From Spartobacteria bacterium (lineage in GTDB: Bacteria > Verrucomicrobiota > Kiritimatiellia > RZYC01), in contig RZYC01000002.1 in assembly GCA_009930475.1 (NCBI GenBank), forward strand, positions 1,121 to 65,120: a DNA stretch of 64,000 nt, given 5' to 3'. Under the pieces are notes generated by a model. That model had not been told where the DNA came from. It made no database searches and saw nothing but the letters and a program-made list of their open reading frames with translations. Both the position numbers and the translations under genes were made by a program. This document shows positions 1 to 54,048 of the stretch, piece after piece; the stretch's first letter is position 1; each line of letters starts with the position of its first letter.

Positions 1-1737
1 ACCCAGGGTGCTCATGGTTCCAAAGAGAGCAATCCCGAAGACCGCACCGATCCCTAAGTAGGTGGTATTAAAAGCCTCCTCAAAGATAGAATATTCCCCC
101 ATGGTGGACGTGAACATAATACAGGCATTTTCCGCCTGCAATTTCCACATCTGTTCGGCAAAGGGATAGACTGCTGACGGGACTTCATTCAGTCCCCAGA
201 TAAAGTTCATAAAGAAGATCGATGCGATCAGAATAATGGGGAACAGCACCACCTGGGTTTTCCAGATACTGGTAAACTTGGTACCGGTCAGTTCGCACTG
301 CTTATAAAACACCACCATCTGGCCGTAATTCGCCATAGGGATGGGCAGGAACCAGCATTTCACCCCGGTATACCCACTGAGGATCAGCGATGCCTCCCGA
401 ATAAAGGGAATTTCCACCACCTGTCCGACCATGCCTTCCAGCCGTGTGGTCACATAACTGAGAATAGGCGTATAGACAAATCCAAGTAAAATCAGCACCA
501 CCATGATGCCCTTATGCCAGTCGATAAGCCAGCCCGACACCAGAATATAGGTAATGGTGACGAGGAAATAGACAAAGACCACAAACCAGGTATTGATATC
601 GCCGCGATCCTTTTTGACATCCATGGGATTCTTCGACCGTTTCTTCGTCGATTTATCCCGATTGCGGAAACTCTGATAGACCTGCCAGAAACCGGCCACG
701 GCCACGGCCACGGCAATCCCTATCTGGAAACTGAAGTAGAAATCGATGTTATTCTTATAGAGCGTAGAGATCGTTCCGTCGCCGGGCGTCCAGTGTTGCA
801 GGATACCGTAATGATAGAGCGTCGGATTCAGCACCATGGTCACGATCAGTCCAACAAAACTGCCCACCATAGCATAGAACGGCAGCACCATACCGAAGAT
901 GATATTCCCGAAATCCCAGGACATCCCTGTGGCCACGGCGCTCAGGTAATCGCCGGTGGTCTGAGTCCAGTCGGAGAACGGAATAGGCAGCACCTGGATG
1001 GTTTCTCCGGTCAGTGCGCCGGACAATGTAGGCAATAGCAGGTAGATAAAGCCGAAGCCCAATCCAATGGCTCCTCCAATGGAAAACACACGCCAGCGCC
1101 AGCGGCCCTCCTCATTTTCAATGGATTTCTCATCGGCATCTTCCGCCAGCGCACAGACACCCTGTGCACCCACTGGGGCCATGGGGAACGGCAGGCGTTC
1201 CACATCATTGGCGACACGAAACAAACCGTATCCCAGAACCGTACTGGCCAACTGACCAAAAAAGGTTCCAAAAATCATCATACCGATGACCGGCAGCCAG
1301 TCGGCATGGAAGAACGTGCGATCACCATAGGACGCCGAATCGGCGGCAGGGGCAAACCAGACCGGCAGCTGATCGGCAATACCGTGGGCAATAGCCGCAT
1401 CACTGCGTGCAAAGAACTGATTCCATATTAATCCGCCGAAAGGCGACCCCATTGCGGCGGCGGCCATAAAGAACAGCACAAAAATCTCGGGTCGTTTCAG
1501 GTTTTTGTGAGCCCGCTTGGCCACCTCAATAAAGAGAATCACCGTCACCCACTGCGAGGCGGCACCAATATTATCCACACCGGCCAGCAGTCCCATATAA
1601 ATGGCGCCCGGCACCATCAGCAGCGCGATAAACAGCGCCCCGACCAATGCCGTCCAGTTAAAGCCATCCTCGAACGTATCGGGGACTTCCATGACCTGCC
1701 GAAACTCTTCCAGTTCTTTATCTACTCTCGTTGCCAT
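1..1737 (-). CDS. Large polytopic membrane protein, family unknown. Partial: the C-terminus runs off the window start; at least 579 aa are visible.
   Basis: The ATG is the complement of 1735-1737 and translates MATRVDKELEEF... The frame is open to nt 1 and is not in the ORF track because there is no stop. Many hydrophobic helices and Gly/Pro-rich loops. The plus-strand ORF 514-1038 is antisense to it and is rejected. Confidence 0.55.
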   Translation of the reverse strand, partial: MATRVDKELEEFRQVMEVPDTFEDGFNWTALVGALFIALLMVPGAIYMGLLAGVDNIGAASQWVTVILFIEVAKRAHKNLKRPEIFVLFFMAAAAMGSPFGGLIWNQFFARSDAAIAHGIADQLPVWFAPAADSASYGDRTFFHADWLPVIGMMIFGTFFGQLASTVLGYGLFRVANDVERLPFPMAPVGAQGVCALAEDADEKSIENEEGRWRWRVFSIGGAIGLGFGFIYLLLPTLSGALTGETIQVLPIPFSDWTQTTGDYLSAVATGMSWDFGNIIFGMVLPFYAMVGSFVGLIVTMVLNPTLYHYGILQHWTPGDGTISTLYKNNIDFYFSFQIGIAVAVAVAGFWQVYQSFRNRDKSTKKRSKNPMDVKKDRGDINTWFVVFVYFLVTITYILVSGWLIDWHKGIMVVLILLGFVYTPILSYVTTRLEGMVGQVVEIPFIREASLILSGYTGVKCWFLPIPMANYGQMVVFYKQCELTGTKFTSIWKTQVVLFPIILIASIFFMNFIWGLNEVPSAVYPFAEQMWKLQAENACIMFTSTMGEYSIFEEAFNTTYLGIGAVFGIALFGTMSTLG

Positions 1738-1761: not shown

Positions 1762-4700
1762 TTATTTAGATACTTTCGTCGACTTCAAATGGACCAGTGT
1801 TTCTGAACGATAATGCTCCATGGTTGCCTGCGGCAAGGAACGCCACAGCAGGAACTGCTGACGCAGATCATTCAACAACACCCGATTCAAACGTGCCCAG
1901 TCTTTCGGCTGGCCGGAAAGTCGTACAATGCGGATATTCACCTCATCGATACCCTCGATTTCGCTCTTAGCTGAGCGCAGGGCAAATTCCTGCGTGACAC
2001 CCAGATCGAAGGGAGCCAGAGCCAGCGTGGCCGACATGCCCAAGGCTCCATCCTTATAGACATCAATTTTTGCATTCTTCGACATAAACGATCCCAGTCC
2101 TGTATCGCTGAACTGGTCAAAATGCTCCTTCAGGAAACTCACCACACCGGTCAGGTCATAGGCCGACACCGTGAACGGGAAAATCAGATCAAACTCATCA
2201 TTATCCGGTTTCGGCAGTTTCCAGGAACGCAGGAGGCCGGGATTGGCACTTTTCGAGGCCTTGATAGCGGGATAAATGGCCGAAATCATAACCGTACCCA
2301 TGACAATCAGGATGGTGACAATCGCATTGGTGGAAGAATAATTCATTTCCGGCAGCTGCATCAGACCGTAGTTTGCCGCAATGCTCATCACCTTCATAGA
2401 TCCCTGAGCAATCAGATAGCCGCCCAGACCGCCCAACACACTGTACACCAGTGCTTCGGAGAAAAACAAACTGGCCACATGCGGGGGAGCGAGTCCCAGC
2501 GCACTGAAGGTGTAAATTTCTTTTTCACGGTCAGCCACAGAGCCCAGCATGGTGCCAAAAATCACCAGCCCGCCCAACAGAATCGGAAAAAATAAATCGG
2601 CGATACCACTGGCGGCAACAATCGTTCCCTGAATGTGGCGATACACCCCGTCGCGGCGCGTCCCCACAATGGGCGTTTTATCCATCATGCGCGCCATATC
2701 TTCGGCTATCGTGGTCGACTGCTGTGAATCTTCGGTATAAAGCGTAATAATATGAGGTTTTCCGCCCAAGCGACGCGCATTGCGCTCAGAGGTAATCACA
2801 ATCGAGTCAATGGGAAGGCTGGCCCAGGAACCCTGATCCGCCATGATATCATCCATGGATGACGTATCGCTCGATCCCGACTGCTTCATCTGCGCAAAAT
2901 CCACAGGAAGAATACTGCTTCCATCCATATCACGGGCGGCCGACAGCGATGAGGCACTCACAAATTCACCCACGCGCAACCGCAATCCCTTAAGAATCAC
3001 TTCCGCCCCCGGCTGCACATCCAGCAGATCCCCTACCGCATCGGTCATAAAGACCATGTCCTCGACATCTTCGGGATTTTCCAGCTTCAGCAGTTCCCGC
3101 AAATCTTCACGCTGCGAGAGTTCCGCTGCGGATAACCCGAGAATACCCTTCAAAATTACCGGATGAGTCGCATCGGAATGCGCCACTGCAAAATCCGGAT
3201 CAGAAGGAAATTCCGGACAGAGCCAGTAGCGATAAGACACCACGGAATCATCACTCCAGCGACCATTGATAATATCCAGAAAATCAGGATTAAAGGAGGT
3301 CCAGTTAGGCTGATGCAGTTCCACGCCCGTATAGGCGGGTGCCGGTGCGGTAAAGAGCTTCACAATCCCCTTCTGCGTATCAAAAGACGCAAAACCCAGA
3401 ATGGTAAAGGTCAGCAAAATAATCGTGACAGCCGTCAGCGCGGTACGCAATGGACGGCGGCGCATGGTGGAAATGCCCATATTCATGGCAGCAATCATCG
3501 TATTAATACGCGAAATATCCGACGCATGCACGGAAGTCGACATCCCCTGCATGGCTTTCAGTTCAAACTCGAACTTCTGCATAATAATCACGATCACCAG
3601 CACCGATAATACAACGATGGCGAATCCCAAGAAAATAATCACCGGCGTCTTGGCAATGGCAAAGGCCGGATGGGACATATACAGCACGAGGAACGTCAGG
3701 ACAAAGAAGAAGGTAAACCAGGCCACCTGTTTGTAAATCATGGTCGATCCCACCAGCAACCGTTCCAGTGCAAAGGCAAAAGGGACGCACAGTGCCAGCA
3801 GTACCAGCACCGCCTTCACCAGGTCATCCATGCTCGTGCGGATAATTTCATAGACCGGCTCCGACGACATATAGGCTGCACTGGACAGGGCTTCGGCGCG
3901 TACCGCATTATCGATGGTGGAGGCTTCCTCGATCATATCCTTCACACGGCCATGAGCCGCTTCCAGCGAACTGTTCATGATATCTCTGTCGCGCAGAATA
4001 TTCATGCGGCGTTCATTCAGCCGCCATAAATCACCGGCGGACCGCCTGGCATTGAGCAGCGAAAGCCAGTCGGTGGTCACCGGATAGCCTACGCCGTAAT
4101 TATCGTCCCTGCTCGTACCCACACTGGCCGGATCATTCACCAGCGCAACAATGGATCGCAAAGCAAAGGCTTTATAGCCCTTAATGGTGGAATCGGCGTA
4201 CCAATAGACCAATCCGTCCGTGGTTTCACAATAAGAACGTTCCGAACTTCCATCGGACAAAATGGCATTGGAGCGGGCATCCAGCAACTTCGCAGGTTTT
4301 GGCCAATATCCCGGAGGAAGCATCAGCACACCGCTTTCGCAGGGAAAGGTATTCAGCCGTTTCATCGCCGTGCTACGCGTGGTCATATCCGAGGCCATAG
4401 CCACCTGACCCCGCTCATCCAGTTTTGCGGCAAAGCCCACGGGTTTGGGATATTCCGATGGCAGGGCACCGGCCTCATAGGCGCCATTCTGATCGGTCAG
4501 CAAGACCCAGTAGGGTTCAAAAGCATAGGGCTTGGTATGATACCAGAAACAGGCATTCCAAGGCGTCCGCAAGCTGAGCTGCACAACAGCTCCGGCCTGA
4601 GCCGTATTGGGAATGGAGCTGCCGCGCTGGCGACCCATAACAATAGCACCGGTGGTACGCCCATTATCAAATCCCGGTACAATATACGTGGCATCCACGG

Positions 4701-6561
4701 GCATGGAGCGGCGCAGGGAAAGGCCTTCCTGATCGGCGATGGCCTCGGGTTCCGTCAGCTTCGAATCCTGACTGCCCACGGCAGTGAGAATGTGACCGAT
4801 TTCGTCCACATTGTTTTCCATCATGGTCAAATCATACTGATCTACGCGATCATCGGGCGTGCCTTCCAGCTCCAGCCGTTCAAAGACCGTACCCAGCACG
4901 ACATTATAAATGCCGTACCGTCCCGCCACTTCCCCGCCATGAATGAGATAGGGAGAAGCCCAGAGCAGACGGGGATTTCTAACCTTGCCGTCGATGGACG
5001 AAATTTCAAAATGTTCAGGACGCCCGCCCGTTTTTTCCAGCGACTGATAGGCCCGCATAAAACTGGACTGAACCTTCCCGTATAAGCCGGGACGATCCCG
5101 CTCGGCGTGCATTTCCGAATCGCCACCCACAATCAGACCCCAGCGATCGGTGCTCTGTCCCAGCATCAACGTGGAATGCAACGTAATCCACTTGTCTTTC
5201 ATCAGCATCTGCAGCGCTTCTGAACCGGCAAGAACAGCACTCAGCTGTGTCAGTTCCTTTTTACGGGCGGCCACGCTGTCGCGCAGCATCGACATGATAG
5301 CAAGAAAGTTAGGATCCTTCAGATTCTTAACATCTTTTCTACCCAGCTGTTTGCGCAGGGCATTCCACGCCTGATACTCCTTATCCAGATCGGCCACCCG
5401 TTTGGTTGCCACGGAACGGTCGCCATCTTTGGGAATAACAGCAAGGGCTTTTCTGGCATCGGCTAAATCGGCACGCACGGCATAGGACAAATCCTGAGCA
5501 TAATTACGTAAACGAAAAAGTAAATCACGCCCTTCGTCGCTGATGGTATCATCCAGCGGATTGGCCTCATTCATTTGCGCTTCTAATTTAGCAATGAAGG
5601 CGTCCTCTTCCTTGGCGGCCTTCAGACGATCGGCAATGGTTGCGCGGTTACCCTCGCCGTCCAGTGCCCAATAAAAATTAATGGTGCCGGAAAAATTGCG
5701 GGCTTCTCCGTCAAAAAAGGCAATGAGGATATGACGACGGGGACGGTTTTCCTTGATATATTCCGCCAGTTTCAGCAGACCCGCGCAATTGATCGCGGCC
5801 CGCCCGCCCGGCGATCGACGCGGCACTTCACCAAAGGAGTCATAGGGCGCGGCCAGAATAATCACCTCTTCTTTTTCTAAGTCAAAAACCGGATCGGTGC
5901 CCTTGAAAAAGGCCAGCACATTATGACCTGTCTCGCGTTTCCATTGAATGGCGCTCCTGATGGTGACCTGTGTCCCGTCAGGCAGTGCATCGCGGGAGCC
6001 GTCATAATAAAACCGGGGGAGATTGGCGTTGGCGCGGACATAATGGAAATTGCTGGCATCGGCCTTTTCACTTGAGACAAATACAACCGCTTTGGCACCC
6101 AGACGAAAGGCCCGCTGCCAATGGGTTCCGGCATTGTACTCCATAACCGCAATTTTATCGTGGGGATTGGCATTCTTAAAATCAGCATCGGTGCCATGCC
6201 CCACGTAGATCAGTTCGCCGGTCACACCTGCTTCATCTGTTACCGGAGGAATGACTACATTGGGACGCATGGGCACCAAATTGATTTTCTGGCCGTCCGG
6301 TAGCAGCATTTCGCATTCGATGACCTGGGTCTGTGCCACCGAAAAATCCTGGGTCAACAGCTCATCAGGAGCCATTTCCTCCAGACGTTTCGTAATGTAC
6401 GCGGCCGCCGCACTTCCATTCGCTGTACCAACAAGGCGATGGGGATATTTCCCGATTTCCCGGCTGTCCCGCTCAAAATCGGCCGTGACTCCATAAGACA
6501 GGGAGCATAACACCGAGGCGAGAAATGCTGTCACGCACCATTTTAAATACCGTCCATTCAT
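1762..6561 (-). CDS. Giant (1,599 aa) double-FtsX/MacB-type ABC permease with an N-terminal signal peptide, a PA domain, a catalytically degenerate M28 peptidase-like ectodomain, a coiled-coil region and a C-terminal cytoplasmic domain
   Basis: FtsX-like TM blocks: MRRRPLRTALTAVTIILLTF..., and a C-terminal ...GTMLGSVADREKEIYTFSALGLAPPHVASLFFSEALVYSVLGGLGGYLIA. N-terminal PA-like segment: KIAVMEYNAGTHWQRAFRLGAKAVVFV. M28-like motifs have their metal ligands replaced: PYDS for HxDS, GGRAAINCAG for GAxDDxSG, FFDGEAR for FxxEE. Confidence 0.6.
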   Translation of the reverse strand: MNGRYLKWCVTAFLASVLCSLSYGVTADFERDSREIGKYPHRLVGTANGSAAAAYITKRLEEMAPDELLTQDFSVAQTQVIECEMLLPDGQKINLVPMRPNVVIPPVTDEAGVTGELIYVGHGTDADFKNANPHDKIAVMEYNAGTHWQRAFRLGAKAVVFVSSEKADASNFHYVRANANLPRFYYDGSRDALPDGTQVTIRSAIQWKRETGHNVLAFFKGTDPVFDLEKEEVIILAAPYDSFGEVPRRSPGGRAAINCAGLLKLAEYIKENRPRRHILIAFFDGEARNFSGTINFYWALDGEGNRATIADRLKAAKEEDAFIAKLEAQMNEANPLDDTISDEGRDLLFRLRNYAQDLSYAVRADLADARKALAVIPKDGDRSVATKRVADLDKEYQAWNALRKQLGRKDVKNLKDPNFLAIMSMLRDSVAARKKELTQLSAVLAGSEALQMLMKDKWITLHSTLMLGQSTDRWGLIVGGDSEMHAERDRPGLYGKVQSSFMRAYQSLEKTGGRPEHFEISSIDGKVRNPRLLWASPYLIHGGEVAGRYGIYNVVLGTVFERLELEGTPDDRVDQYDLTMMENNVDEIGHILTAVGSQDSKLTEPEAIADQEGLSLRRSMPVDATYIVPGFDNGRTTGAIVMGRQRGSSIPNTAQAGAVVQLSLRTPWNACFWYHTKPYAFEPYWVLLTDQNGAYEAGALPSEYPKPVGFAAKLDERGQVAMASDMTTRSTAMKRLNTFPCESGVLMLPPGYWPKPAKLLDARSNAILSDGSSERSYCETTDGLVYWYADSTIKGYKAFALRSIVALVNDPASVGTSRDDNYGVGYPVTTDWLSLLNARRSAGDLWRLNERRMNILRDRDIMNSSLEAAHGRVKDMIEEASTIDNAVRAEALSSAAYMSSEPVYEIIRTSMDDLVKAVLVLLALCVPFAFALERLLVGSTMIYKQVAWFTFFFVLTFLVLYMSHPAFAIAKTPVIIFLGFAIVVLSVLVIVIIMQKFEFELKAMQGMSTSVHASDISRINTMIAAMNMGISTMRRRPLRTALTAVTIILLTFTILGFASFDTQKGIVKLFTAPAPAYTGVELHQPNWTSFNPDFLDIINGRWSDDSVVSYRYWLCPEFPSDPDFAVAHSDATHPVILKGILGLSAAELSQREDLRELLKLENPEDVEDMVFMTDAVGDLLDVQPGAEVILKGLRLRVGEFVSASSLSAARDMDGSSILPVDFAQMKQSGSSDTSSMDDIMADQGSWASLPIDSIVITSERNARRLGGKPHIITLYTEDSQQSTTIAEDMARMMDKTPIVGTRRDGVYRHIQGTIVAASGIADLFFPILLGGLVIFGTMLGSVADREKEIYTFSALGLAPPHVASLFFSEALVYSVLGGLGGYLIAQGSMKVMSIAANYGLMQLPEMNYSSTNAIVTILIVMGTVMISAIYPAIKASKSANPGLLRSWKLPKPDNDEFDLIFPFTVSAYDLTGVVSFLKEHFDQFSDTGLGSFMSKNAKIDVYKDGALGMSATLALAPFDLGVTQEFALRSAKSEIEGIDEVNIRIVRLSGQPKDWARLNRVLLNDLRQQFLLWRSLPQATMEHYRSETLVHLKSTKVSK

Positions 6562-6576: not shown

Positions 6577-7464
6577 CTATTCAATACTGCCAAGTTCAAC
6601 TTCGACTTCATCGCGTTTTGCGATGCGTTCAATCTGTCCGTCGCGAATCCATAAAAGTCTATCGCACACATTCATCATGCGATGATCATGCGTGGCGCAA
6701 ATGATGGTGACCCCCTTCTCTTTATTCAGCTTCTGGAGAATATCTAGAATCTCCTGCCCCGTATGCTGATCCAGGTTGGCGGTGGGTTCATCACATAATA
6801 AAATGCCGGGCTGATTCGCCAGCGAACGGGCAATGGCCACACGCTGTTGCTGCCCGCCGGACATTTCGATAGGTTTATGAAACCAGCGCTGTTTCAATCC
6901 CACCAGATCCAGTAAATCCATGCCTCTGTTACGCGCCACATCGGGTTCCACACCGCCAAAAGCCATGGGTGTGGTCACATTTTCCAGTGCGGTCATATAT
7001 TGAATCAAATTGTACTGCTGGAAAATATACCCGATTTTCCGGCAACGCAGAAAAGCCAGTTCTTCCGCCGTCAGCTGAGCGACATCCACCTCATCGATAA
7101 AAACGCGGCCTTCACTGGGACTGTCCAGCGCACCAATCATATTAAAGAAGGTGCTTTTACCCGATCCCGACGGACCCATCACCACAATAAATTCTCCGGT
7201 ATAGATTTCCATATCTACCCCGCGCAGCGCATGAGTGACTTCCCCGCCTCGATTATAAATCTTTTTCATCCCGATGGATCGGATGATAACGCGAGAGGAG
7301 GCGCCCGCTGCCGGTTTCGCGTCCTCTGCCTGGGTCAGCGCCTCCGACACCGATTCTTCTTTAACGACAGGCTTTTCGCTGTCGCACTCCCTGTTCGATG
7401 TCATGTCTGCCTTTGCCGGCTTATTTTTTTTCTGAGTCTTTTTATTTTTCGCCATTTGAATCAC
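6577..7464 (-). CDS. ABC transporter ATP-binding protein of the MacB/LolD type, with a roughly 70-aa Lys/Glu-rich N-terminal extension
   Basis: Walker A GPSGSGKST, signature LSGGQQQRVAIARSL, Walker B ILLCDEPTANLD, H-loop ATHD. It lies 8 nt from the upstream FtsX gene. Confidence 0.85.
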   Translation of the reverse strand: MIQMAKNKKTQKKNKPAKADMTSNRECDSEKPVVKEESVSEALTQAEDAKPAAGASSRVIIRSIGMKKIYNRGGEVTHALRGVDMEIYTGEFIVVMGPSGSGKSTFFNMIGALDSPSEGRVFIDEVDVAQLTAEELAFLRCRKIGYIFQQYNLIQYMTALENVTTPMAFGGVEPDVARNRGMDLLDLVGLKQRWFHKPIEMSGGQQQRVAIARSLANQPGILLCDEPTANLDQHTGQEILDILQKLNKEKGVTIICATHDHRMMNVCDRLLWIRDGQIERIAKRDEVEVELGSIE

Positions 7465-7472
7465 CCTGAAAA

Positions 7473-8942
7473 TTATTCGATTCGCATCGCTTCCATCGGA
7501 GCCAGTCGCGCGGCTCTCATGGACGGATACACCGCCGACACCGCCGCCAGAACAATGCCCAGCAGCACAGATATCACACCTGAAATCAATAAGGACTCAA
7601 CCGGAATAGATTGAAACATAAGAGATTTAAATTCAAAGGCCATGCGGGACATCCCGATGATCAGGCCAATTAGCGAACCGAGCAATCCGCCCATAAGACC
7701 CAAAATCGAGGATTCAATAAGAAACACCAGCATGATAAATCCATCCAGTGCACCAAGACACTTGAGCGTAGCAATTTCGCGAAAACGTTCGGTCACCGAC
7801 ATCAGCATGGCGTTGGCAATTCCCACCGCACAAACCAGCATAGAGACAAACAGCAGCCAGCTCATCCGTTTCCCCATACCGAGGAATCCGGTGCCGGAAT
7901 CGGCGGTGGCCAATTCGGCGCGCACCAGCAGCCGCTGCTTTTTGACTCCTTCCGCCAGCGTCACCAAACGTGAGGCGCTCATCTCGGAAATGGTCACACC
8001 GGCGGCCTGCATGGCGTTCATATACCATTGGGCATGCTCTTTGGATAGAAGCAGCTTCCAGATCATTTCCACCTTTACGTCGGCGGGAAGAATGTTTTCT
8101 TTGGCGGCAATATCGCGGCGCAATGAAATATTATTGATGGTATCTTCAATAATGTGACGGTCAATCATCGCCTGCGCCTGCGAGGCCAGTGTGACCGACT
8201 CGGCCTGAGGCAGATAAAAACCCGACTGACGAATCACGTCGCCGAATGCACCGTCCGCCTGCGTTAACGCCGCCAGCATCAATTGTCCGTCCAGCTGACT
8301 CTGCACCTTTTTCAATACCAGCTGCTGGCTCTTGCGGATTTGTTTACAAAACGCATCCAGTGCCGTCCATGACGTCAAATACGGCACCAGCGCCTGAGGA
8401 TCGCCGGGAAATTCAACGGTTTTCAATTTAGCCAGATGGTCGTAAAAAGAGGCGCGATGGGTCTCATCCGCGAGATAATCGAAGATGTAGGAGCCCTCGG
8501 AACGACCTGCCAGCAACCGGCGCTTCCCGTAATCCAGCGCGTCAAAGAAATCGAGATACCCACTGGCCTGCACGGCCAGTTCGTGCATTTCCTGAGGATT
8601 GGCGTCACTACCGCTAAACTGCATCATTTCTGCAAAGACATCGGAATCTGCGGCGTTTTCCGACAAAATTTCTATGATTTCATCGCGTGATTGCGGCACC
8701 GACAGCTTGGCAATCCACTGATCCGACAAATGCATCGCATGAATCTCGTCGCGCGCGGTTTCCGCCACGGCCCGTTTGATCATGCTCTCTGATAAAATAT
8801 TCATCAGGAAAGACATCGCCACGGTGATCACCACCACGGTAACCATAGCACGAAAAAGACGGTATTTGACACCGGCCAGCGCAATGCTCACGGTTCGGCT
8901 AAGACTAAGGATGGGTTGGTCTTTTACATCAATTGTTTTCAT
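7473..8942 (-). CDS. FtsX-like ABC permease (489 aa)
   Basis: C-terminal FtsX block: ...MSVTERFREIATLKCLGALDGFIMLVFLIESSILGLMGGLLGSLIGL... It is adjacent to the ABC ATPase. Confidence 0.75.
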   Translation of the reverse strand: MKTIDVKDQPILSLSRTVSIALAGVKYRLFRAMVTVVVITVAMSFLMNILSESMIKRAVAETARDEIHAMHLSDQWIAKLSVPQSRDEIIEILSENAADSDVFAEMMQFSGSDANPQEMHELAVQASGYLDFFDALDYGKRRLLAGRSEGSYIFDYLADETHRASFYDHLAKLKTVEFPGDPQALVPYLTSWTALDAFCKQIRKSQQLVLKKVQSQLDGQLMLAALTQADGAFGDVIRQSGFYLPQAESVTLASQAQAMIDRHIIEDTINNISLRRDIAAKENILPADVKVEMIWKLLLSKEHAQWYMNAMQAAGVTISEMSASRLVTLAEGVKKQRLLVRAELATADSGTGFLGMGKRMSWLLFVSMLVCAVGIANAMLMSVTERFREIATLKCLGALDGFIMLVFLIESSILGLMGGLLGSLIGLIIGMSRMAFEFKSLMFQSIPVESLLISGVISVLLGIVLAAVSAVYPSMRAARLAPMEAMRIE

Positions 8943-8954
8943 ATCAATAAGCCC

Positions 8955-11057
8955 TTAGGATGGCATAATAATAAACGGCTTCGGCTGATCACCGGTAATC
9001 AAATAGTAAATCGCACTGATGATCATGGGCAGAACCCCGCCCAGCATCTCGCCTGCAATCAACCCGAACATCAAAGGCTTCAATTTCTGATAGAATCCGG
9101 CTCCGCCATACTTGGTCACCGCCATTTTAATCAGCCATCCAATCAGGAAGGACTGGGCAAAACACTTACCGGAATAGGTCGACCACACTAGGAACATAAC
9201 CGGATGGAAAGGCCACTTGGTAAAACGCAGACGCAGTGCAGAGAAGAGCAGCACACAGCCCGCAGCCACGCCAAAAACAATCATACCCTGTTTGTGGGGC
9301 TGAGCACCGGTATAACGAGCCAGCCCCGTTGCCGTTCCGGCGTCCTGCAGCTGGCCCTGTGCTTCGAGGCGCTGCATGTTGGCAATGGTTTCATTGAAAG
9401 GATTCTGCGACTGCTGATTCTGCCATGCCGACAAGTCAATGCCGCGATTATACTGGAAATAAAGCGTCACCGGAATCCCCACACCCAGTCCGACCACCAG
9501 TGCCAAAACAATCATGGCGGCGGAACGGCCGACTTTCACCTTGGTATCGTCAGCCAGTTTCAGGGCATTAACCACAAAAGGCATCAGGGCTTCGCGCGGG
9601 TCGTAAAACAATATGAGACAGAACATGAACATGGTCAGAATGGCCGCCGGCCCCAGTGCTTTCGGCCCCAGCACCGCCAGAATAATCGTTGCCGGCGTGC
9701 CGGCGGTCACAATAAAGAAGACGCCGGTTTCCGCGATCATTCGGCCCATTACCAGATACACCGCCATGGTACACAGACCGAACAGCACCGCAATAGACCA
9801 GGGAAGCCCCGCATAATAGGTGCTGTAAAAGGTAAACAGAATCAGGGAAAGGACAAACAGCCGGGCACCCCAGATCGAGGTCGGCGCAATCTTTTCTTTT
9901 CCGCCCATGCCAAAGGATTTGCGGAAGACCGCCAGATAGTAATAGCGACCGGTATACAACAGCACCAGCAACATGGCGAAATACGCGCCCATATTGAACA
10001 TGTTTTCACGATTGATGCCGAAGGGCCACTGTCCCTGCCACCCGGAATTGGCCACCCCGTACATGGACAGCATACCCGTCAAAGTAATCCATATAAAGGG
10101 TCCGATACCCATGGAAAACGATACGTCCGTGGGCAGGAAAAAGGCGATGGCGATCACTGTGAAGAAAATCGAATAGTACCCGGAAAGGAAGCCGACGCCC
10201 CCGCCCTGTTTAAAGGCTGGAAACAATTCACCCAGCGAACTGAAGTCCACGCCGCTGGGAATCGCCCCCATCAGATAGGATGGGAACCAGACATTGAGGT
10301 AGTTGTAGACATAAATACCGAAGACAATAAACATCGCGACCCAGAAAGAACGATCTTTGAAAACCGGGCTCTCACTGCCGTCCTCATTAGGCAGCAGCGA
10401 CTTGGTAAAAGTCACCAGCGGATAGGGTAAATGCTCGTGATCCACCCATTGCTTGTGCACCACCAGCGATAGACCGAGCAGGCCGAGCCATAGCGATAAA
10501 ATAATCGGCAGCCAGAATTTCATACTGGGCAGCCATGCCTTCCAGGGGATTTCCGAGAAGGCCACACTCTTGTTACCCTCGCCCAGTCCGCGAATAAATC
10601 CGTTCAGCACCGTATCTTCATTCTGCGGGGTCACCTCAGCCAGCATCCCGTCGGGGACCATCTCCATGACGTTCTGCTTTTCCCAGCCCGGTTCGGTTTT
10701 TTCAAAACGATGCGGCATAATCAGCGACGGCGTAAACAGTCGCAGCAGATTGGCTCCGGGAATGGCACAGGCAGGTAGCATGATCACCAGAATCGTCGCA
10801 ATTTCCGCGCGGGTCAGACAGAATCTTCTCCCGAATTTACGTAGCAGCGGATACAGCAGAATCATAAATAAAACCAGCGCCCCATAAATGGATATCGGCA
10901 TATTATTACCGATAAACATCGTCTGGCGCATGATACTATCATTAAAGTAGGTATAACTGGTGACAAATGCCACGCCAAGCAACCCAATCAACACAGCCCT
11001 GATTGACACGAATACAACCTCACTCACATACGATTTATCACCACTCTGCAAACACAC
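8955..11057 (-). CDS. Polytopic integral membrane protein (700 aa), family unknown
   Basis: Hydrophobic helices throughout; no recognisable catalytic motif. It lies 11 nt downstream of the PqqD-like gene and 12 nt upstream of the FtsX gene. The antisense ORF 9204-10430 is rejected. Confidence 0.55.
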   Translation of the reverse strand: MCLQSGDKSYVSEVVFVSIRAVLIGLLGVAFVTSYTYFNDSIMRQTMFIGNNMPISIYGALVLFMILLYPLLRKFGRRFCLTRAEIATILVIMLPACAIPGANLLRLFTPSLIMPHRFEKTEPGWEKQNVMEMVPDGMLAEVTPQNEDTVLNGFIRGLGEGNKSVAFSEIPWKAWLPSMKFWLPIILSLWLGLLGLSLVVHKQWVDHEHLPYPLVTFTKSLLPNEDGSESPVFKDRSFWVAMFIVFGIYVYNYLNVWFPSYLMGAIPSGVDFSSLGELFPAFKQGGGVGFLSGYYSIFFTVIAIAFFLPTDVSFSMGIGPFIWITLTGMLSMYGVANSGWQGQWPFGINRENMFNMGAYFAMLLVLLYTGRYYYLAVFRKSFGMGGKEKIAPTSIWGARLFVLSLILFTFYSTYYAGLPWSIAVLFGLCTMAVYLVMGRMIAETGVFFIVTAGTPATIILAVLGPKALGPAAILTMFMFCLILFYDPREALMPFVVNALKLADDTKVKVGRSAAMIVLALVVGLGVGIPVTLYFQYNRGIDLSAWQNQQSQNPFNETIANMQRLEAQGQLQDAGTATGLARYTGAQPHKQGMIVFGVAAGCVLLFSALRLRFTKWPFHPVMFLVWSTYSGKCFAQSFLIGWLIKMAVTKYGGAGFYQKLKPLMFGLIAGEMLGGVLPMIISAIYYLITGDQPKPFIIMPS

Positions 11058-11068
11058 ACCGACCCGTC

Positions 11069-11464
11069 TTAAATGATCTGAACGGCCAGTGCACCTTTTT
11101 TTACTAAAACGCTAATATAGTTTATAACGGAGATGCGTGCCTCATGGAAAGTAATAAAATACTTTTTCGAAAAAGCCTCCACAACCTCTTCTACCATAGG
11201 ACTTTCTGAACACATATCTAAAACCTCCGCGCCCAGTTTATCGATCTCCAGCACCTTTTCATCCGGTAAACGCATAATCCAGCTGATGGGCGGTATACAC
11301 CATTTCGGTTTACGGTTTTTTACCGCAATGTACAACATACCCTCCTCGTCGGGCCCTTCGACCTTGACCGCCACATTACGTATGACACGCGAACGCAGCA
11401 TGGATTCCCAGGAACTGTCCCCGACACGAAAACAGGCATCCGGCTTTTTTTTCTGTTTAGACAT
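11069..11464 (-). CDS. PqqD-like protein (RiPP recognition element fold), stand-alone
   Basis: C-terminal three-helix segment KVLEIDKLGAEVLDMCSESPMVEEVVEAFSKKYFITFHEARISVINYISVLVKKGAL is typical of PqqD/RRE, preceded by beta-strand-like VKVEGPDEEGMLYIAV. Its start codon overlaps the upstream stop (TAATG). Confidence 0.55.
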   Translation of the reverse strand: MSKQKKKPDACFRVGDSSWESMLRSRVIRNVAVKVEGPDEEGMLYIAVKNRKPKWCIPPISWIMRLPDEKVLEIDKLGAEVLDMCSESPMVEEVVEAFSKKYFITFHEARISVINYISVLVKKGALAVQII

Positions 11465-12327
11465 TATTTGATGCCTCCGAAAGGCTGACAGCAGCTCACA
11501 TAATCAAAAGGCGCTTTTTCACACGCCGGCTTTCCCGTCGGGCGCACCACTAAAAAGCGATATATCCGCTGATCCACCGGACAGCGCCAGCACATAGACT
11601 GATAGGTTCCATTAGGATGCGCCAGCCCCTTGCGCACAAAATCCCCCGACATATCCCAGATTTTATGTCCGCCCGCCGTTCGCGTGCTTAATTCGCCGTG
11701 CACACATTGTTTATCCAGCCGGTTTACCGCCCAGTCCTCCAGCGGCACCGTCAACCAGGTGTCCACCATACCCAGGCGTTCGATCTGCCAGAAATTGTTT
11801 TTCTTTCCATAGGTATATCGCGCCAGCGCCGGCTGAATCAGGCATTCGGTCATAGGAAAACGACGGGGAACCCGCACATTTAATCCCCAGGCCCGGCGTG
11901 TAATCATCCCCTGCCCGTCTGCCGCATTGAACTGCACACTGAATAAAATGGTATTTTCCAAACGTACATCACGCTGATCCGGCCACAGAAAAACCAGTTC
12001 CACCAAAATCCCGGGCTGCTCCAGATAGATCCCGAACCGGCTGACCATGATGCCGTTCTGCATTCCGCACAGCCCGTGAAATCCAGCCCCGCCTTTCACA
12101 TTGACCGCATCCTTTAATCCGCCCCTATCTGTCAGACGATGCTGATAGTCCGACATCATGCGATCGAAGTCCGGTTCTCCCCCCACTTCTTTCCAGTCGA
12201 CTTCTAAACGAAATCGATAGCGATCCGCAAAGGCACAGCGCCCCGACACATCACTGCGTGAAAATTGCAACATCTCCCATTCATCCGGGATATCCAGCGA
12301 AATCTGATTCCAACACACGTTTTGCAT
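11464..12327 (-). CDS. Hypothetical Cys-rich cytoplasmic protein (287 aa), no recognisable family
   Basis: No TM segments. C-terminal CWRC ... CEKAPFDYVSCC resembles a zinc ribbon. Translationally coupled to the PqqD-like gene. Confidence 0.5.
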   Translation of the reverse strand: MQNVCWNQISLDIPDEWEMLQFSRSDVSGRCAFADRYRFRLEVDWKEVGGEPDFDRMMSDYQHRLTDRGGLKDAVNVKGGAGFHGLCGMQNGIMVSRFGIYLEQPGILVELVFLWPDQRDVRLENTILFSVQFNAADGQGMITRRAWGLNVRVPRRFPMTECLIQPALARYTYGKKNNFWQIERLGMVDTWLTVPLEDWAVNRLDKQCVHGELSTRTAGGHKIWDMSGDFVRKGLAHPNGTYQSMCWRCPVDQRIYRFLVVRPTGKPACEKAPFDYVSCCQPFGGIK

Positions 12328-12385: not shown

Positions 12386-12895
12386 TTATCGCTCAAGAAA
12401 ACGACGGAGCGTGTCGTTTACCGCGCGATGAATGGCGGTACAGGTACGGGTTGCGCCGCTCACCGCATCCACCGCGAGCGGCTGGCCGGATGCGATGTCT
12501 TTTCCCGCAAACCGGTCAAGAAAACCTTCTGATATCACCATGTCAACATAGGGCGGCGTATCACCGCTTTCTACTAAAATAACGCGCACCAGTTTCGTTC
12601 CGGACGGATCGATGTGAAGCATCAGCGATGTGGGACCGCGATAACCGACGGGCGCGGAAACATCTCCGGTTAGAACAACCCATCCGACATGAGGCGCATA
12701 GCCCCAACGGAATGGGTCGGAATGCAGCTCGAGCTCTGTCACTCCCAGCTTTGACGCAGCGATGTCACGCCATTGCGCATCAGAGACGGGGGTCAAGTCA
12801 TCATGACGGCCTTTGGCATAGCCCATCGAACCGGCCAGGCCGGTTACGATGAGAATAATACATATGTACCAACTGTTTTTCATTAGAACGTCCAC
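12386..12895 (-). CDS. Secreted FMN-binding domain protein (FMN_bind; candidate flavinylated extracytoplasmic redox protein)
   Basis: Signal peptide or N-terminal anchor WYICIILIVTGLAG. Hallmark VDAVSGATRTCTAIHRAVNDTL: in FMN_bind proteins the Thr in SGAT is the flavinylation site. Confidence 0.7.
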   Translation of the reverse strand: MDVLMKNSWYICIILIVTGLAGSMGYAKGRHDDLTPVSDAQWRDIAASKLGVTELELHSDPFRWGYAPHVGWVVLTGDVSAPVGYRGPTSLMLHIDPSGTKLVRVILVESGDTPPYVDMVISEGFLDRFAGKDIASGQPLAVDAVSGATRTCTAIHRAVNDTLRRFLER

Positions 12896-13839
12896 ATGGC
12901 AATGCAGTTGACCGTATAATCCGGTGATGCACCCGTGCGCGAAGCATAGGGAACCGTTCCCTGAAGCACGATTTTTCTTTTACTGTAATCGGTGGTCATT
13001 GGGTAGAACTGTATTCCCGCCAATACATTGTGACTGTATGTATACTGCTCCTCCGTCCCGTCCAAAATGGTGTCATCTTTCTGTGTGGACATCCATCCGC
13101 CGGCACCCAGTTTCATTTCAAACCAGCGGCCCAGCGTTTTTTCCACCACCATCTGATAGTTCACCACATCGGGTACGTCCTGACCGGAACGTTTGAACGG
13201 AAATCCCGTGACGCCATCGCTTTCAGCGGCATCGCCCCGCCATTCGTAAATAACGTGAGCGGCATATTCGACAAAATCGTCATGGATTCCACCGTGCAGC
13301 AACGCGCCCAGCTGCGCTTTATTGCATCCGGCAGAAAGTCCGGCGACCAATGCTTCATCATCGTCTACAACCCCATAACCAAAAGCCGCACCCAGGCTGA
13401 CTTTGGTATAATTGAATTCCGATTCCGGATTATGCGAGTCGATGATAAAGTATTTACCCGCCAGCCAAATTTCGGTCAGACCCGATTCGCTGAACGAGGC
13501 CGTTTTACCTGCCAAATTCTTTTTCTCGGTATCCACTGATGCATATTTCAATTCCACACCGATATCGCAGCGCGATGAAAGTCCGTACCCCAGACGCACA
13601 TTACTGCTAATCAATTCTTTTTTGGTCAAACCGGCCCCGTCGTCGATATCAACCATTTCGCCTTTCTGGGCATTCCATTTTTCGGTCATATCCGCATATG
13701 TCACACTCAATCGCGGCCAGATCGTTCCTTTCATAATCCCATTGGGACATCCCAGAATATCTGCCGCCATGGTTGGCACACTCAACGTGGTTACCCCGAT
13801 CGCAGCCACCACGGCCATCATCGTTTTCCTGTTTTTCAT
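12883..13839 (-). CDS. Outer-membrane beta-barrel protein (porin-like), with signal peptide
   Basis: MKNRKTMMAVVAAIGVTTLSVPTMAAD signal. Alternating amphipathic strands. C-terminal aromatic residue ...AMWTF, typical of BAM substrates. Confidence 0.55.
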   Translation of the reverse strand: MKNRKTMMAVVAAIGVTTLSVPTMAADILGCPNGIMKGTIWPRLSVTYADMTEKWNAQKGEMVDIDDGAGLTKKELISSNVRLGYGLSSRCDIGVELKYASVDTEKKNLAGKTASFSESGLTEIWLAGKYFIIDSHNPESEFNYTKVSLGAAFGYGVVDDDEALVAGLSAGCNKAQLGALLHGGIHDDFVEYAAHVIYEWRGDAAESDGVTGFPFKRSGQDVPDVVNYQMVVEKTLGRWFEMKLGAGGWMSTQKDDTILDGTEEQYTYSHNVLAGIQFYPMTTDYSKRKIVLQGTVPYASRTGASPDYTVNCIAMWTF

Positions 13840-14084: not shown

Positions 14085-16163
14085 TCAGACCCCTATTCCG
14101 GCGAGTGAACCGATTTGATAGACAGCGGTCGTGAGAACCCAGGCAAGCAGCGTCAGACCACCCAGCTGGAATAAGGCCCAGCGCCATGAATTGGACTCGC
14201 GTTTCGTTACGGCGATCGTCGCCATGCAGGGCGCACTGATGAGACAAAAGAGCATGATGCAAAATCCGGTCAGCGGATTGTAATGCTTCTGTAGCTGTTC
14301 ACGCAGCGGCTGCGAGGTCTCGTCGCTTTCCCCCACCGAATAGACAATGCCAAGCTGAGCGACAAACACTTCTTTGGCGGCAAACGCTCCGATTAATGCC
14401 GTCCCAATGCGCCAGTCAAATCCCATAGGTTTGATCACCGGCTCCATCACATGCCCGATTCTCCCGGCAAAGGTATGAGCAAGCTGTTGAGATTGTTGCA
14501 ATTCCTCGGACAGTGATGGATCCGGCGTAGATTGTGGAAAAGTCGTCAGTGCCCACAAAAGAATAGAGATTCCCAAAATCAGGGTTCCCGCTTTTTTAAG
14601 GTACAGTTTACTGCGTTCCCACACGTGAATCATGATTCCGCTGAACGTAGGCACACGATAGGGCGGCAGTTCCATCACAAAAGGTTCTGTGGGACCTTGT
14701 AAAACACTGATGCGTAAAATCTTTGCAACCACAACGGCCAGAACGAGTCCGATGATATAAATCAGCCACAGCAGCGGGGCCTGCCATGGTTTGGCAAAGA
14801 AAGCCGGAATAATCAGTGCATAAATGGGCAGACGAGCCCCGCAACTGGACAGGGGAACAACAAACATTGTGGTAAGCCGATCGCGCCGGTTATCCAGCGT
14901 ACGTGTGGCCATAATCGCCGGAACCGAACAACCGAATCCTATGAGCATCGGAATAAAACTTTTGCCATGCAGCCCGATTTTATTCATCAGGCGATCCATA
15001 AGAAAGGCGGCGCGCGCCATATAACCGGTGTCTTCGAGTACGGCAATGGCCAAAAACAACAGCAATATATTGGGAAGGAAAATGAGCACGCCGCCCACGC
15101 CGGCAATAATCCCGTCTGTCACCAGGGAATGAATCAGTTCCATTTGATCCGCCGGCCAGATGCTGTCGACCCATCCCGTCAACGCACCAAATCCCGCATC
15201 AATCCAGTCCATAGGCAACGCACCAAAAGTAAACGTCATATAAAAAACGCAATACATAAGCACGGCGAAAATAGGCAGGCCCAGCACGCGATGTGTGACA
15301 ATATGATCCACGCGATCGGACATGGAAACACGCTGTTCGACGGATGATCGTATGGATTGCTGAATGACCCCGGATATAACCCCGTAGCGCTGCTCTGCAA
15401 TAAGAATATCCGGTTCATCTCCGGTGACATGTATCAGGCGCTCTACTTCCTTGTCCACCACGGCCAGCACAGCCGGAGTCGTCGCGTCCATCATCTCATC
15501 ATCACGTTCCAGCAGTTTCACCGCAGTCCAGCGTATCTGTTCCGGGTTTTTTGAGGAATCCTCCGAAAAGAGCTGCCAACCGATCAGATCCAGACTTTTC
15601 TCAACTTCCTTTCCGTACCGTACATCCAGCGGTGCAGGTCGCGATGATGCCGTCATGACGGCTTCGATCTCCGCAGTCACATCGTCCAGCCCCCGCCCCT
15701 TTGACGCAACCACTGGAATGACTGGAACCCCCAGCAAAACCGCCATTTTCTTCAAATCAATGGCCATTCCGCGCGACTGGGCCACATCCATCATGTTCAA
15801 CACCACAATCAGAGGAACCTTCATCTCCAATAATTGAAAAGTCAGATAAAGGTTGCGTTCAATATTTGATGCATCCACCACGTTGACCACGACGTCCGGC
15901 GTCTGATGCAGCAATTCCTGACGCGCCACCCGCTCTTCCACACTATGAGCCGCCAGACTATAGGTGCCGGGCAGATCGGTGATTTCCATGCGCCATTGAC
16001 CCGACTCACGAACCCCTTCCTTTTTTTCGACGGTAACACCCGGATAATTCCCCACGTGCTGCCGTGAACCGGTCAATCGATTAAATAATGTTGTCTTGCC
16101 GGAATTGGGATTCCCGGCCAATGCAATACGTATCGTCTGCATGTATATCTCACTCCTTGTCAT
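14085..16163 (-). CDS. feoB: Ferrous iron transporter FeoB
   Basis: N-terminal G-domain IALAGNPNSGKTTLFN..., DLPGTYSL, NMMD, then a large polytopic permease domain. The true start may be the internal M at complement 16142. Confidence 0.9.
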   Translation of the reverse strand: MTRSEIYMQTIRIALAGNPNSGKTTLFNRLTGSRQHVGNYPGVTVEKKEGVRESGQWRMEITDLPGTYSLAAHSVEERVARQELLHQTPDVVVNVVDASNIERNLYLTFQLLEMKVPLIVVLNMMDVAQSRGMAIDLKKMAVLLGVPVIPVVASKGRGLDDVTAEIEAVMTASSRPAPLDVRYGKEVEKSLDLIGWQLFSEDSSKNPEQIRWTAVKLLERDDEMMDATTPAVLAVVDKEVERLIHVTGDEPDILIAEQRYGVISGVIQQSIRSSVEQRVSMSDRVDHIVTHRVLGLPIFAVLMYCVFYMTFTFGALPMDWIDAGFGALTGWVDSIWPADQMELIHSLVTDGIIAGVGGVLIFLPNILLLFLAIAVLEDTGYMARAAFLMDRLMNKIGLHGKSFIPMLIGFGCSVPAIMATRTLDNRRDRLTTMFVVPLSSCGARLPIYALIIPAFFAKPWQAPLLWLIYIIGLVLAVVVAKILRISVLQGPTEPFVMELPPYRVPTFSGIMIHVWERSKLYLKKAGTLILGISILLWALTTFPQSTPDPSLSEELQQSQQLAHTFAGRIGHVMEPVIKPMGFDWRIGTALIGAFAAKEVFVAQLGIVYSVGESDETSQPLREQLQKHYNPLTGFCIMLFCLISAPCMATIAVTKRESNSWRWALFQLGGLTLLAWVLTTAVYQIGSLAGIGV

Positions 16164-16209
16164 TAGGACTTCCTAACTTTTGGTATAAAAAAAACACAAT
16201 GAAAAATCC

Positions 16210-16443
16210 CTACGACGGGGCCACCAGAATGCCGTGCGCCATACCGCGTCCAATCGCAAAACGACTTTCCTTCATTTTGATGAGCAGCGGCCCCGGCTGA
16301 CTGCTGATCACCTCCAGAGAACAACCGGGATAAATGCCCAGCGAAGCCAGCCTCGCACAGCGATGATGTCCCCCGTTCACACTGCAAACCGTAAGCGGTG
16401 TACCACTGGGAGCCATAGTCAACGACATGCCGGACTTAATCAT
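16210..16443 (-). CDS. feoA: FeoA
   Basis: 77 aa, SH3-like FeoA pattern ...RLASLGIYPGCSLEVISSQPGPLLIKMKESRFAIGRGMAHGILV. The ORF 16163-16387 in another frame is rejected. Confidence 0.75.
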   Translation of the reverse strand: MIKSGMSLTMAPSGTPLTVCSVNGGHHRCARLASLGIYPGCSLEVISSQPGPLLIKMKESRFAIGRGMAHGILVAPS

Positions 16444-17185
16444 GATGCACCTGCACTAAAATAGCAGCGGCTTCCGTTTTTCGCAGCGAAAGATGATAGC
16501 CCCGAATTTTGAAATCAATGGGATCACCCATGGGGGCTTTGCGTACAACCTCAATCGTCACGCCCCTGGAAACGCCCATTTCCGCCAATTTCAGGCGTAA
16601 CGCCCCCGTCGCCTCAATCTTTTCGACAACACCCCGATCCCCGGCATCCATCGCTTCGGCAAGGATCGAAGTACATGTTTGCTCTCTCATTTTTTCTGCC
16701 TCCTCCAGCTGCGTCAGACACGACTCTATACAGGGACGACACTGACTTTCCTTATTCATTTCACTACACTGATAACTCAGCCCGCGAATCCATTTCAATC
16801 CGGCACGCGGACACGTCTCGATAAATTCAGTAAACTGCACCAGCCGATCAATCACCTCGCGCGACGCCGCATGTTCCAGCAGACACGCCTGTTCATCCGC
16901 AACCGCAGGATCAATACACAAAACAGACGTCAAAAAAAGCCGCAATATCTCATGCTTACGCACGACCGCTTTGGCAAGTGCCTCCCCTTCATCAGTCAAT
17001 GTAACAGCGGCATATTTCTTATAATGCACCAGCTTCTTTTCTGCCAGCGTTTGAAGCATCTCCGTCACAGAAGGTTTTCGCACGGATAAGCGGTTGGCAA
17101 TATCGGTTGTCCGCGCACCGCCTCCTTCGCGTGATAACATCCAGATCGCTTCTAAATAATCTTCAAGTGCCGCACTGATCGCCAT
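16436..17185 (-). CDS. DtxR/IdeR-family metal-dependent transcriptional repressor with a C-terminal FeoA/SH3-like domain
   Basis: N-terminal HTH MAISAALEDYLEAIWMLSREGGGARTTDIANRLSVRKPSVTEMLQTL. The C-terminal FeoA-like segment GVTIEVVRKAPMGDPIDFKIRGYHLSLRKTEAAAILV. The gene overlaps feoA by 8 nt. Confidence 0.85.
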   Translation of the reverse strand: MAISAALEDYLEAIWMLSREGGGARTTDIANRLSVRKPSVTEMLQTLAEKKLVHYKKYAAVTLTDEGEALAKAVVRKHEILRLFLTSVLCIDPAVADEQACLLEHAASREVIDRLVQFTEFIETCPRAGLKWIRGLSYQCSEMNKESQCRPCIESCLTQLEEAEKMREQTCTSILAEAMDAGDRGVVEKIEATGALRLKLAEMGVSRGVTIEVVRKAPMGDPIDFKIRGYHLSLRKTEAAAILVQVHHD

Positions 17186-46777: not shown

Positions 46778-46894
46778 AGGCCGTGAACCTATGCCATGAC
46801 ATCCCTGTATGTCAATAGTATGATTATAAATCAGACTTACTATTGATTTTCTCTTGATCATCACGGTACAAATCATAATATCAAAAGTTATGCA

Positions 46895-53871: not shown

Positions 53872-54048
53872 TCATAAACACGAGCCATACTCCACACCCG
53901 TCACGTCACATGGAAAACCGATGCAGAGGATGCTATTTTGAGTACGCCAAATCAAATTAAAAATGGAAATATGCCTATGCATATATTAATCTGACTTATT
54001 ATTAATTTCTCCTTGACTTACAATCACACACACGCCACATTCACAGAC

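Follow-up and report, generated by a model that had tools for sequence, protein, structure and literature searches.

Closest Described Systems and the T287–RRE Pair

The closest described relatives of the protein considered here are the lasso-peptide B1 proteins (TfuB1, 6jx3; TbiB1, 5v1u) and the pyrroloquinoline quinone (PQQ) protein PqqD (3g2b, 5sxy), small stand-alone members of the Pfam family PF05402, translationally coupled to a partner gene that encodes a protease or a radical-SAM enzyme. They represent the RRE, the recognition element of peptides that are made by the ribosome and modified after translation (RiPPs). A 131-aa RRE protein of the same Pfam family is encoded, together with a 287-aa partner protein (T287), in a 64,000-nucleotide stretch of a Verrucomicrobiota ('Spartobacteria') metagenome-assembled genome (contig RZYC01000002.1, positions 1,121 to 65,120); this whole stretch is called the window below, and for this genome the analysis covers the 64 kb window alone. 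The window RRE is likewise small, stand-alone and translationally coupled, but it carries an extra N-terminal helix and a PPxSW insertion, its partner is a PsbP-like binding protein, and the loci checked contain neither a precursor gene nor a maturase. The original prediction had called it an orphan; we find that the pair belongs to a conserved eight-gene transporter cassette specific to the Planctomycetes–Verrucomicrobia–Chlamydiae (PVC) superphylum. Our proposal, to which we give a probability of roughly 45%, is that T287 and the RRE work together in the cytoplasm as an adaptor or chaperone for a PVC-specific envelope transporter and do not make up a RiPP biosynthetic unit.

Some 40% of the RREs that have been detected are without known RiPP neighbours (PMC12710340), so an RRE lacking such neighbours is not rare in itself; these proteins may be regulators or belong to unknown classes (PMC7470986). 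The new elements here are a PsbP-like partner that stays constant and is sometimes fused to the RRE, and a transporter context that is fixed within one superphylum.

The fold kin of T287 are proteins of the PsbP/Mog1/DcrB/DUF1795 type, including TplEi/Tli4 (5h7y), a two-domain immunity protein of the type VI secretion system (T6SS), BT_1490 (3hlz) and SciW (6xrb), an effector chaperone of the Eag type. T287 is set apart from them by its own invariant GRCAFADRY motif and a putative metal-clamped tail. It also has no T6SS genes nearby, is cytoplasmic and is paired with an RRE.

On the transport side, the cassette shares FtsX-type permease domains and a LolD/MacB-like ATPase with the Type VII (MacB/LolCDE/FtsEX-type) systems, and its permeases likewise carry large domains between transmembrane (TM) helices, which by analogy with MacB would be extracytoplasmic. 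FtsEX controls periplasmic hydrolases, and a cassette partner with a peptidase-like fold recalls this arrangement by analogy. The cassette differs from MacB, Lol and FtsEX systems in its permease of 1600 aa, whose membrane region is duplicated and whose M28-like domain is probably inactive, and in having two additional polytopic proteins (DUF6785/6784 and OPT-like) and cytoplasmic RRE and PsbP-like subunits, none of which is known there. A further relative is the OPT family (PF03169), to which the OPT-like protein has precomputed matches; that it is followed by an ABC ATPase of its own is atypical of OPT secondary transporters.

Linkage, Fusion and Distribution of the Pair

One genome per species was scanned for T287, which yielded 80 loci, 79 of them informative. 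The RRE gene lies directly downstream of the T287 gene, or is fused to it, in 69 of these 79 loci (~87%), and the RRE stop codon mostly falls 360–420 nt past the T287 stop codon, so that the two genes abut or overlap. In the window itself the T287 stop codon TAA and the RRE start codon ATG overlap by one base (junction ...AAA TAA TG TCT...). The TAATG overlap named in the original prediction is present in the sequence, and the two genes are translationally coupled.

Four independent proteins (P0008, L011, P0193 and P0208) are natural T287–RRE fusions; they retain both domains together with the C-terminal tail motif of T287, which is separated from the RRE by a linker of ~15 to 40 residues. The suggestion that the 287-aa protein is a partner or scaffold of the RRE fits both these fusions and the adjacency in 69 of 79 loci.

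All labelled loci belong to the PVC superphylum: Verrucomicrobiota, Kiritimatiellia, Lentisphaerota/Victivallales, Planctomycetota and one Omnitrophota. One of the loci belongs to Oligosphaera ethanolica DSM 24202, a strain that is in culture. A role of the pair as a defense system was considered and set aside, as PADLOC gave no match for either T287 or the RRE.

The RRE Protein

The 131-aa protein is a genuine stand-alone PqqD/RRE protein. It matches the Pfam PqqD profile PF05402 over residues 68–125 with 27.1 bits (gathering score 23.4; E 5.5e-6), and a precomputed match to the same profile exists for each of the 120 listed homologues among the 191 found by search. Its AlphaFold model (predicted local distance difference test, pLDDT, 84; built from 117 homologues) shows a sheet followed by three helices, the canonical winged-helix fold of a three-stranded beta-sheet and three helices; it superposes on solved RREs and best of all on lasso-peptide B1 proteins. 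The PqqD-like character named in the original prediction therefore holds at the level of the curated Pfam cut-off as well as in the predicted fold. The score remains far under the NCBIfam subfamily cut-offs (lasso B1, 20.3 versus 80; PqqD, 14.2 versus 46; WgkC, 21.6 versus 110), and judged by its sequence the protein stands outside the lasso, PQQ and WgkC subfamilies.

The additions specific to this family are the N-terminal helix (W19..L23) and the inserted PPxSW loop. Helix 3 opens with an invariant FHE motif (Phe-His-Glu), and Arg110 is also invariant. In helix 1, three positions that hardly vary in the family are changed in the window's own copy, which reads L..MCSE in place of W..LCDG (Trp82 to Leu, Asp86 to Ser and Gly87 to Glu).

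RREs have structural kinship with winged-helix DNA-binding domains, and these are the chief source of false positives when RREs are searched for (PMC7470986). The protein might instead regulate transcription of the operon as a winged-helix protein with no more than a resemblance to an RRE, T287 being its sensor partner, and the basic character of the family (median isoelectric point 9.75) would agree with this. We nevertheless regard such a role as highly improbable: the model contains the three-stranded sheet typical of RREs, the curated PqqD cut-off is passed, and the net charge of the helical part is about −1, with the basic residues sitting in the N-terminal half. Both the fusion to T287 and the translational coupling would also be unusual for a repressor.

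T287: Fold, Cysteines and C-Terminal Tail

A first search returned 39 homologues of T287, from which an AlphaFold model with a pLDDT of 92 was obtained; the family comprises 920 cluster representatives at 50% identity. According to the model, T287 consists of two PsbP/Mog1/Eag-like sandwich domains (residues ~1–130 and 140–263), after which come a linker that varies and a conserved tail at the C-terminus (VSCCQPF...). The model superposes on PsbP/Mog1/DcrB/SciW/TplEi-like proteins of the alpha-beta-alpha sandwich fold, so the protein originally described as having no recognisable fold is predicted to be a tandem of PsbP/Mog1/DcrB/Eag-type binding domains. At the sequence level T287 has no match in Pfam, NCBIfam, PADLOC or PDB, profile search included, and it does not fall into the PsbP, DUF1795, DcrB or Tli4 families.

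No enzyme was found among the top structural matches of T287, and no invariant histidine was found in the family. A lasso B2-like or other cysteine protease was rejected, since the structural matches include no transglutaminase- or papain-like protein and the family lacks an invariant histidine. As far as we are aware, proteins of the PsbP/Mog1 fold bind proteins, peptides or lipids and are not catalytic. On the basis of the model, T287 is probably a cytoplasmic binding protein with a non-enzymatic fold; the earlier idea of a new RRE-dependent enzyme does not sit well with a binding-type fold, the lack of enzymes among the top matches and the missing invariant histidine. The invariant polar residues of the family are Cys31, Asp35, Arg36, Glu42, Glu110, Arg184 and Arg254.

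Residue conservation was assessed over 121 non-redundant family members. His221, Cys249, Cys279 and Cys280 are present together in 82 of the 121 sequences. Of the 31 sequences without Cys249, 28 also lack His221 and none has the CC motif. The strongest intramolecular couplings of T287 connect the same residues (249–279, z 8.3; 221–249, z 7.8; 221–279, z 6.1; mutual information with average product correction, 97 paired sequences). In the AlphaFold model, the tail is packed onto the body of the protein with a pLDDT of ~81. Because the quartet co-varies within T287 and the model packs the tail on the body, these four residues probably make up a putative Cys3His metal site by which the C-terminal tail would be fastened to domain 2. 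In a second subfamily the quartet is lost; its members carry the tail [SA][CA]PEFxxxP and the class-specific aromatic residues W71, W230 and Y185.

The end of T287 had been described as a Cys-rich CxxC...C...CC segment. Part of this pattern is conserved, namely Cys249, the second cysteine of the CxxC, and the Cys279/Cys280 pair, together with His221; Cys246, the first cysteine of the CxxC, and Cys269 are not. The label 'Cys-rich' is accordingly less apt than that of a putative Cys3His tail-holding site, which one subfamily has lost entirely. Two other cysteines lie outside the co-varying quartet and are kept in both tail classes: Cys31, within the GRCAFADRY motif (110 of 121 sequences), and Cys162 (103 of 121).

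The tail is a conserved short motif (LSCCxxhEhxh, or [SA][CA]PEFxxxP in the second class) that follows a linker variable in both length and sequence, and in all four fusions it is retained ahead of the linker and the RRE. This raises the possibility that the tail itself docks in the RRE groove, either as a pseudo-substrate switch or as the end of a protein-sized precursor that is modified or cleaved there. The beta3 strand pairs with leader peptides in known RREs, and RRE residues 63–72, which include beta3, recur in the top inter-protein couplings with T287 domain 2 residues 208, 230, 233 and 244, a modest signal from highly variable columns. We consider this docking unlikely. The tail cysteines co-vary with His221 and Cys249 inside T287, which argues for an intramolecular clamp and not for a free tail, and the AlphaFold model also packs the tail onto T287. 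In the fusions the tail is internal, which removes the need for a free C-terminus; the invariant RRE residues (FHE and Arg110) are identical across both tail classes, despite the different tails; and no modifying enzyme is present in the window or in related loci.

The Transporter Cassette

The recurrent gene order of the cassette is T287, RRE, the DUF6785/6784 protein, an FtsX permease, an ABC ATPase, a giant protein of ~1600 aa, an OPT-like protein of ~670 aa and a second ABC ATPase. It is repeated in Lentisphaerota, Verrucomicrobiota, Kiritimatiellia and Planctomycetota. The permease gene lies downstream of the pair in 49 of the 65 loci with enough downstream sequence. Where at least 9 kb of downstream sequence was available (55 loci), the giant protein gene was found in 42 and the DUF6785/6784 gene in 24; elsewhere the latter stands before T287 or after the RRE, or is absent. 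An independent start from the FtsX permease in metagenomes gave T287 upstream in 41 of 54 loci and the RRE upstream in 45 of 67. Counted from either side, the pair is thus located within the transporter operon in about three quarters of cases.

Two unusual arrangements were seen among the related loci. In one of them (L078, 12–9765), a divergent second copy comprising the giant, the OPT-like protein, FtsX and two ATPases lies directly upstream of a cassette led by T287 and the RRE, without a pair of its own. In two others (L144, 5621–9719; L163, 4737–8947), there is no T287/RRE pair and two tandem DUF6785 genes precede the FtsX permease.

The 700-aa DUF6785/6784 protein has no PDB sequence match, and a BLASTP comparison of the DUF6785 protein with the OPT-like protein revealed no homology. 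In the literature, no paper was found on DUF6785, DUF6784 or the eight-gene cassette.

The FtsX permease is laid out as TM1, a domain of ~300 aa and three further TM helices, and by analogy with the MacB/LolC topology the ~300-aa domain would be extracytoplasmic. Pfam FtsX matches on the 489-aa and 1599-aa proteins and an ABC_tran match on the 295-aa protein provide the combination of an FtsX-type four-helix permease and an ATPase that characterises Type VII systems. Membership in the NCBIfam LolCDE, MacB or FtsEX subfamilies is not indicated, all scores being far under the cut-offs: the permease has partial matches to LolCE and MacB (lolCE, 54.7 versus a cut-off of 362), and the best match of the ATPase is LolD with 215.9 bits, under the cut-off of 307.

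The giant protein combines an N-terminal anchor, a large domain with a PA/M28-like part and a duplicated LolE/FtsX-type membrane region. Judging from the N-terminal anchor, we infer that the large domain is outside the cytoplasm. Its PDB sequence matches are to MacB, YtrF, Spr0694-type permeases and an aminopeptidase. Residues 872–1482 also match the PADLOC profile 'CARF_m8--CARF_LolE_TM' (E 1.1e-53), meaning that the duplicated LolE-type membrane module is also found fused to CARF domains in candidate CRISPR-associated effectors.

The Pfam M28 match on the giant protein is weak and covers 73 of 193 profile positions. In M28 peptidases, the co-catalytic zinc ligands and the catalytic glutamate are provided by the His of AHxDS, the Asp of GADD and a Glu-Glu pair. 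At these places nearly all of 45 giant homologues read A[NP]LDS, GARGAAN and D[NG]QAR, as matched by eye against the M28 consensus, and the canonical His is kept in few of them. Since the canonical metal ligands are missing, the M28-like domain (~214–300) is probably an inactive pseudo-peptidase; for the same reason it is unlikely to act as a leader peptidase.

The OPT-like gene is the most conserved of the cassette, with 44 homologous open reading frames (ORFs) and phmmer E-values down to 1e-274 across phyla, and nearly all of these ORFs lie directly downstream of a giant gene. Its N-terminal cytoplasmic peptide of 25 residues is nearly invariant (DKELEEFRxxMEVPSTFEEGF or DKELEEFRxxMEVPxxFEDGF). 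Precomputed matches to Pfam OPT (PF03169) exist for full-length homologues (~670 aa) in several loci and are weak in most; in the partial copy of the window, the OPT match is under detection. The OPT matches suggest, at the level of sequence, a peptide-related substrate. In other loci, the second ABC ATPase follows the OPT-like gene.

Search for RiPP Machinery

A Pfam scan of the long ORFs of the 64-kb window identified no YcaO, no SPASM or RiPP radical SAM protein, no lasso B2/C, no LanB and no pqq genes, in agreement with the original prediction. The sole radical-SAM protein of the window is a methylthiotransferase of the MiaB/RimO type (UPF0004, Radical_SAM and TRAM domains; 45410–46876, minus strand), 33 kb away from the pair. 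Among the called genes of the related loci checked, including those beside the unusual loci, no RiPP maturase was found. When known genes were masked, none of the small ORFs across 85 loci was conserved, the largest small-ORF cluster being a shadow of the OPT-like gene.

The gaps flanking the pair measure 58 nt upstream of the T287 gene and 11 nt between the RRE stop codon and the GTG start codon of the 700-aa ORF; they are too short for a precursor gene, as had been noted. Nor is there a modifying enzyme of the radical SAM/SPASM, YcaO, lasso B2/C, LanB or ATP-grasp type at the locus, and the partner that is fused to the RRE in some proteins, T287, has a non-catalytic fold. Hence the locus has neither a precursor gene nor a modifying enzyme, the two elements of gene content expected of an RRE-dependent RiPP cluster.

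The pair may still serve a true RiPP pathway that is dispersed over the genome, with the precursor elsewhere, the enzyme elsewhere or T287 itself as a new enzyme, and with the ABC and OPT genes exporting the product. Every RRE with a biochemical characterisation functions in a RiPP or PQQ pathway, and RiPP clusters often include exporters (PMC7470986); only about 60% of the RREs detected have known RiPP proteins nearby, so unrecognised classes are expected (PMC12710340). Cys31, Asp35, Arg36 and the other invariant polar residues of T287 would suit an enzyme, and the view of this genome spans 64 kb. We find a dispersed pathway rather unlikely, if somewhat less so than docking of the tail in the RRE groove, because no precursor-like conserved small ORF occurs in the 85 loci and no maturase in the window or in the called genes of related loci. 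T287 has the fold of binding proteins and lacks an invariant histidine for a site of the cysteine protease type, the lone peptidase-like domain is devoid of canonical M28 ligands in nearly all 45 homologues, and the conserved partners of the pair are transport proteins and not enzymes.

Proposed Role of the Pair

In the proposed adaptor or chaperone role, the beta3/helix-3 groove of the RRE would accommodate a peptide in extended form, by analogy with lasso B1 proteins. Such a peptide might itself be cargo, or it might be a conserved segment of a partner on the cytoplasmic side; the N-terminal peptide of the OPT-like protein, which is nearly invariant, is the leading candidate ligand. The couplings of RRE residues 63–72 with T287 domain 2 lend this role weak support. 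A further platform for binding may be offered by T287, in the manner of Eag chaperones and Tli4-type proteins, with the putative Cys3His site clamping its tail to domain 2 in most members. The pair would thereby deliver, retain or sense a peptide at the cytoplasmic face of the transporter.

A more specific form of this proposal, which we hold slightly more tentatively, is that the RRE fold has moved from RiPP biosynthesis into a PVC-specific transport machine, where, together with T287 and sometimes fused to it, it would recognise a peptide segment belonging to the cargo or to a transporter subunit, on the cytoplasmic side of an unusual MacB-type/OPT-like complex.

Several observations weigh against an adaptor or chaperone role. 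The association of the pair with the transporter is not obligatory: in at least six cassettes no pair lies within 10 kb (L104, L120, L133, L144, L157 and L163), ten loci have T287 without an RRE, and in some genomes the T287 and RRE genes make up a two-gene unit of their own, surrounded by housekeeping genes (L007, L009, L010 and L014), the neighbours of such unlinked units in Verrucomicrobiota being DNA ligase, MetH, an SNF2 helicase, IlvD and a SurA-like protein. Inter-protein covariation between T287 and the RRE is weak, with a top z of 5.5, ~79 effective sequences and a bias from column variability. The invariant polar residues of T287 exceed the needs of a simple scaffold and, as sequence features, leave room for a catalytic role. 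Finally, this genome is seen through a 64 kb stretch. The probability beyond the readings set out here is left for something we have not considered.

Locus Layout and Surroundings

The genes of the cassette present in the window are listed in Table 1. The original prediction placed a 700-aa membrane protein directly past the RRE gene, followed by an ABC system, and both the gene coordinates and the Pfam matches agree with this order. The OPT-like ORF begins 24 nt past the end of the giant gene. A scan for promoters and terminators near the pair gave counts equal to those in shuffled sequence.

Table 1. Cassette genes in the 64 kb window, in order of transcription.
Feature	Position	Strand	Basis
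T287 (287 aa)	11464..12327	minus	ORF call
RRE protein (131 aa)	11069..11464	minus	ORF call; Pfam PF05402
DUF6785 + DUF6784 polytopic membrane protein (700 aa)	8955..11057	minus	Pfam DUF6785, E 3.4e-80; DUF6784, E 2.2e-19
FtsX/MacB/LolC-type permease (489 aa)	7473..8942	minus	Pfam FtsX, E 1.5e-15
ABC ATPase, LolD/MacB/DevA type (295 aa)	6577..7464	minus	Pfam ABC_tran, E 3.1e-31
Giant FtsX-type protein (1599 aa)	1762..6561	minus	Pfam FtsX, residues 1325-1437; weak M28, residues 214-293
OPT-like membrane protein, first 579 codons (gene leaves the window at its start)	1..1737	minus	Translation; homologous ORFs

Two genes located upstream of T287, encoding an FMN_bind protein (12386–12895) and a 318-aa protein (12883–13839), were considered as parts of the system and rejected, having no homologues in related loci. 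Just upstream of the cassette, at 14085–17185 (minus strand), lie a FeoB gene, a small ORF resembling FeoA and a gene for an iron repressor of the DtxR type that is fused to a FeoA domain; they are not conserved beside the cassette in other genomes. MacB-type pumps often use partners of the TolC-like and HlyD-type families, and a TolC-like outer-membrane factor (OEP) and an HlyD-type membrane fusion protein are encoded at 39039–41845 (minus strand), 28 kb from the cassette. Two proteins of ~320–340 aa (33828–34787, minus strand; 54013–55029, plus strand) contain partial IS200-like Y1 transposase domains and are much longer than the usual IS200 transposase.

Significance

RRE domains serve as class-independent beacons for RiPP gene clusters, and orphan RREs are usually treated either as false positives or as signs of undiscovered RiPP classes. 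The pair of T287 and the RRE suggests a third option, in which a well-populated subfamily with true RRE folds has a binding protein and a transporter as its constant partners in place of an enzyme and a precursor. If the proposed role is true, this RRE would be the first whose dedicated role lies outside biosynthesis, and orphan RREs would have to be read differently in genome mining. For the PVC bacteria, a soluble two-protein module with a predicted metal site would then offer an entry into an uncharacterised eight-gene envelope system.

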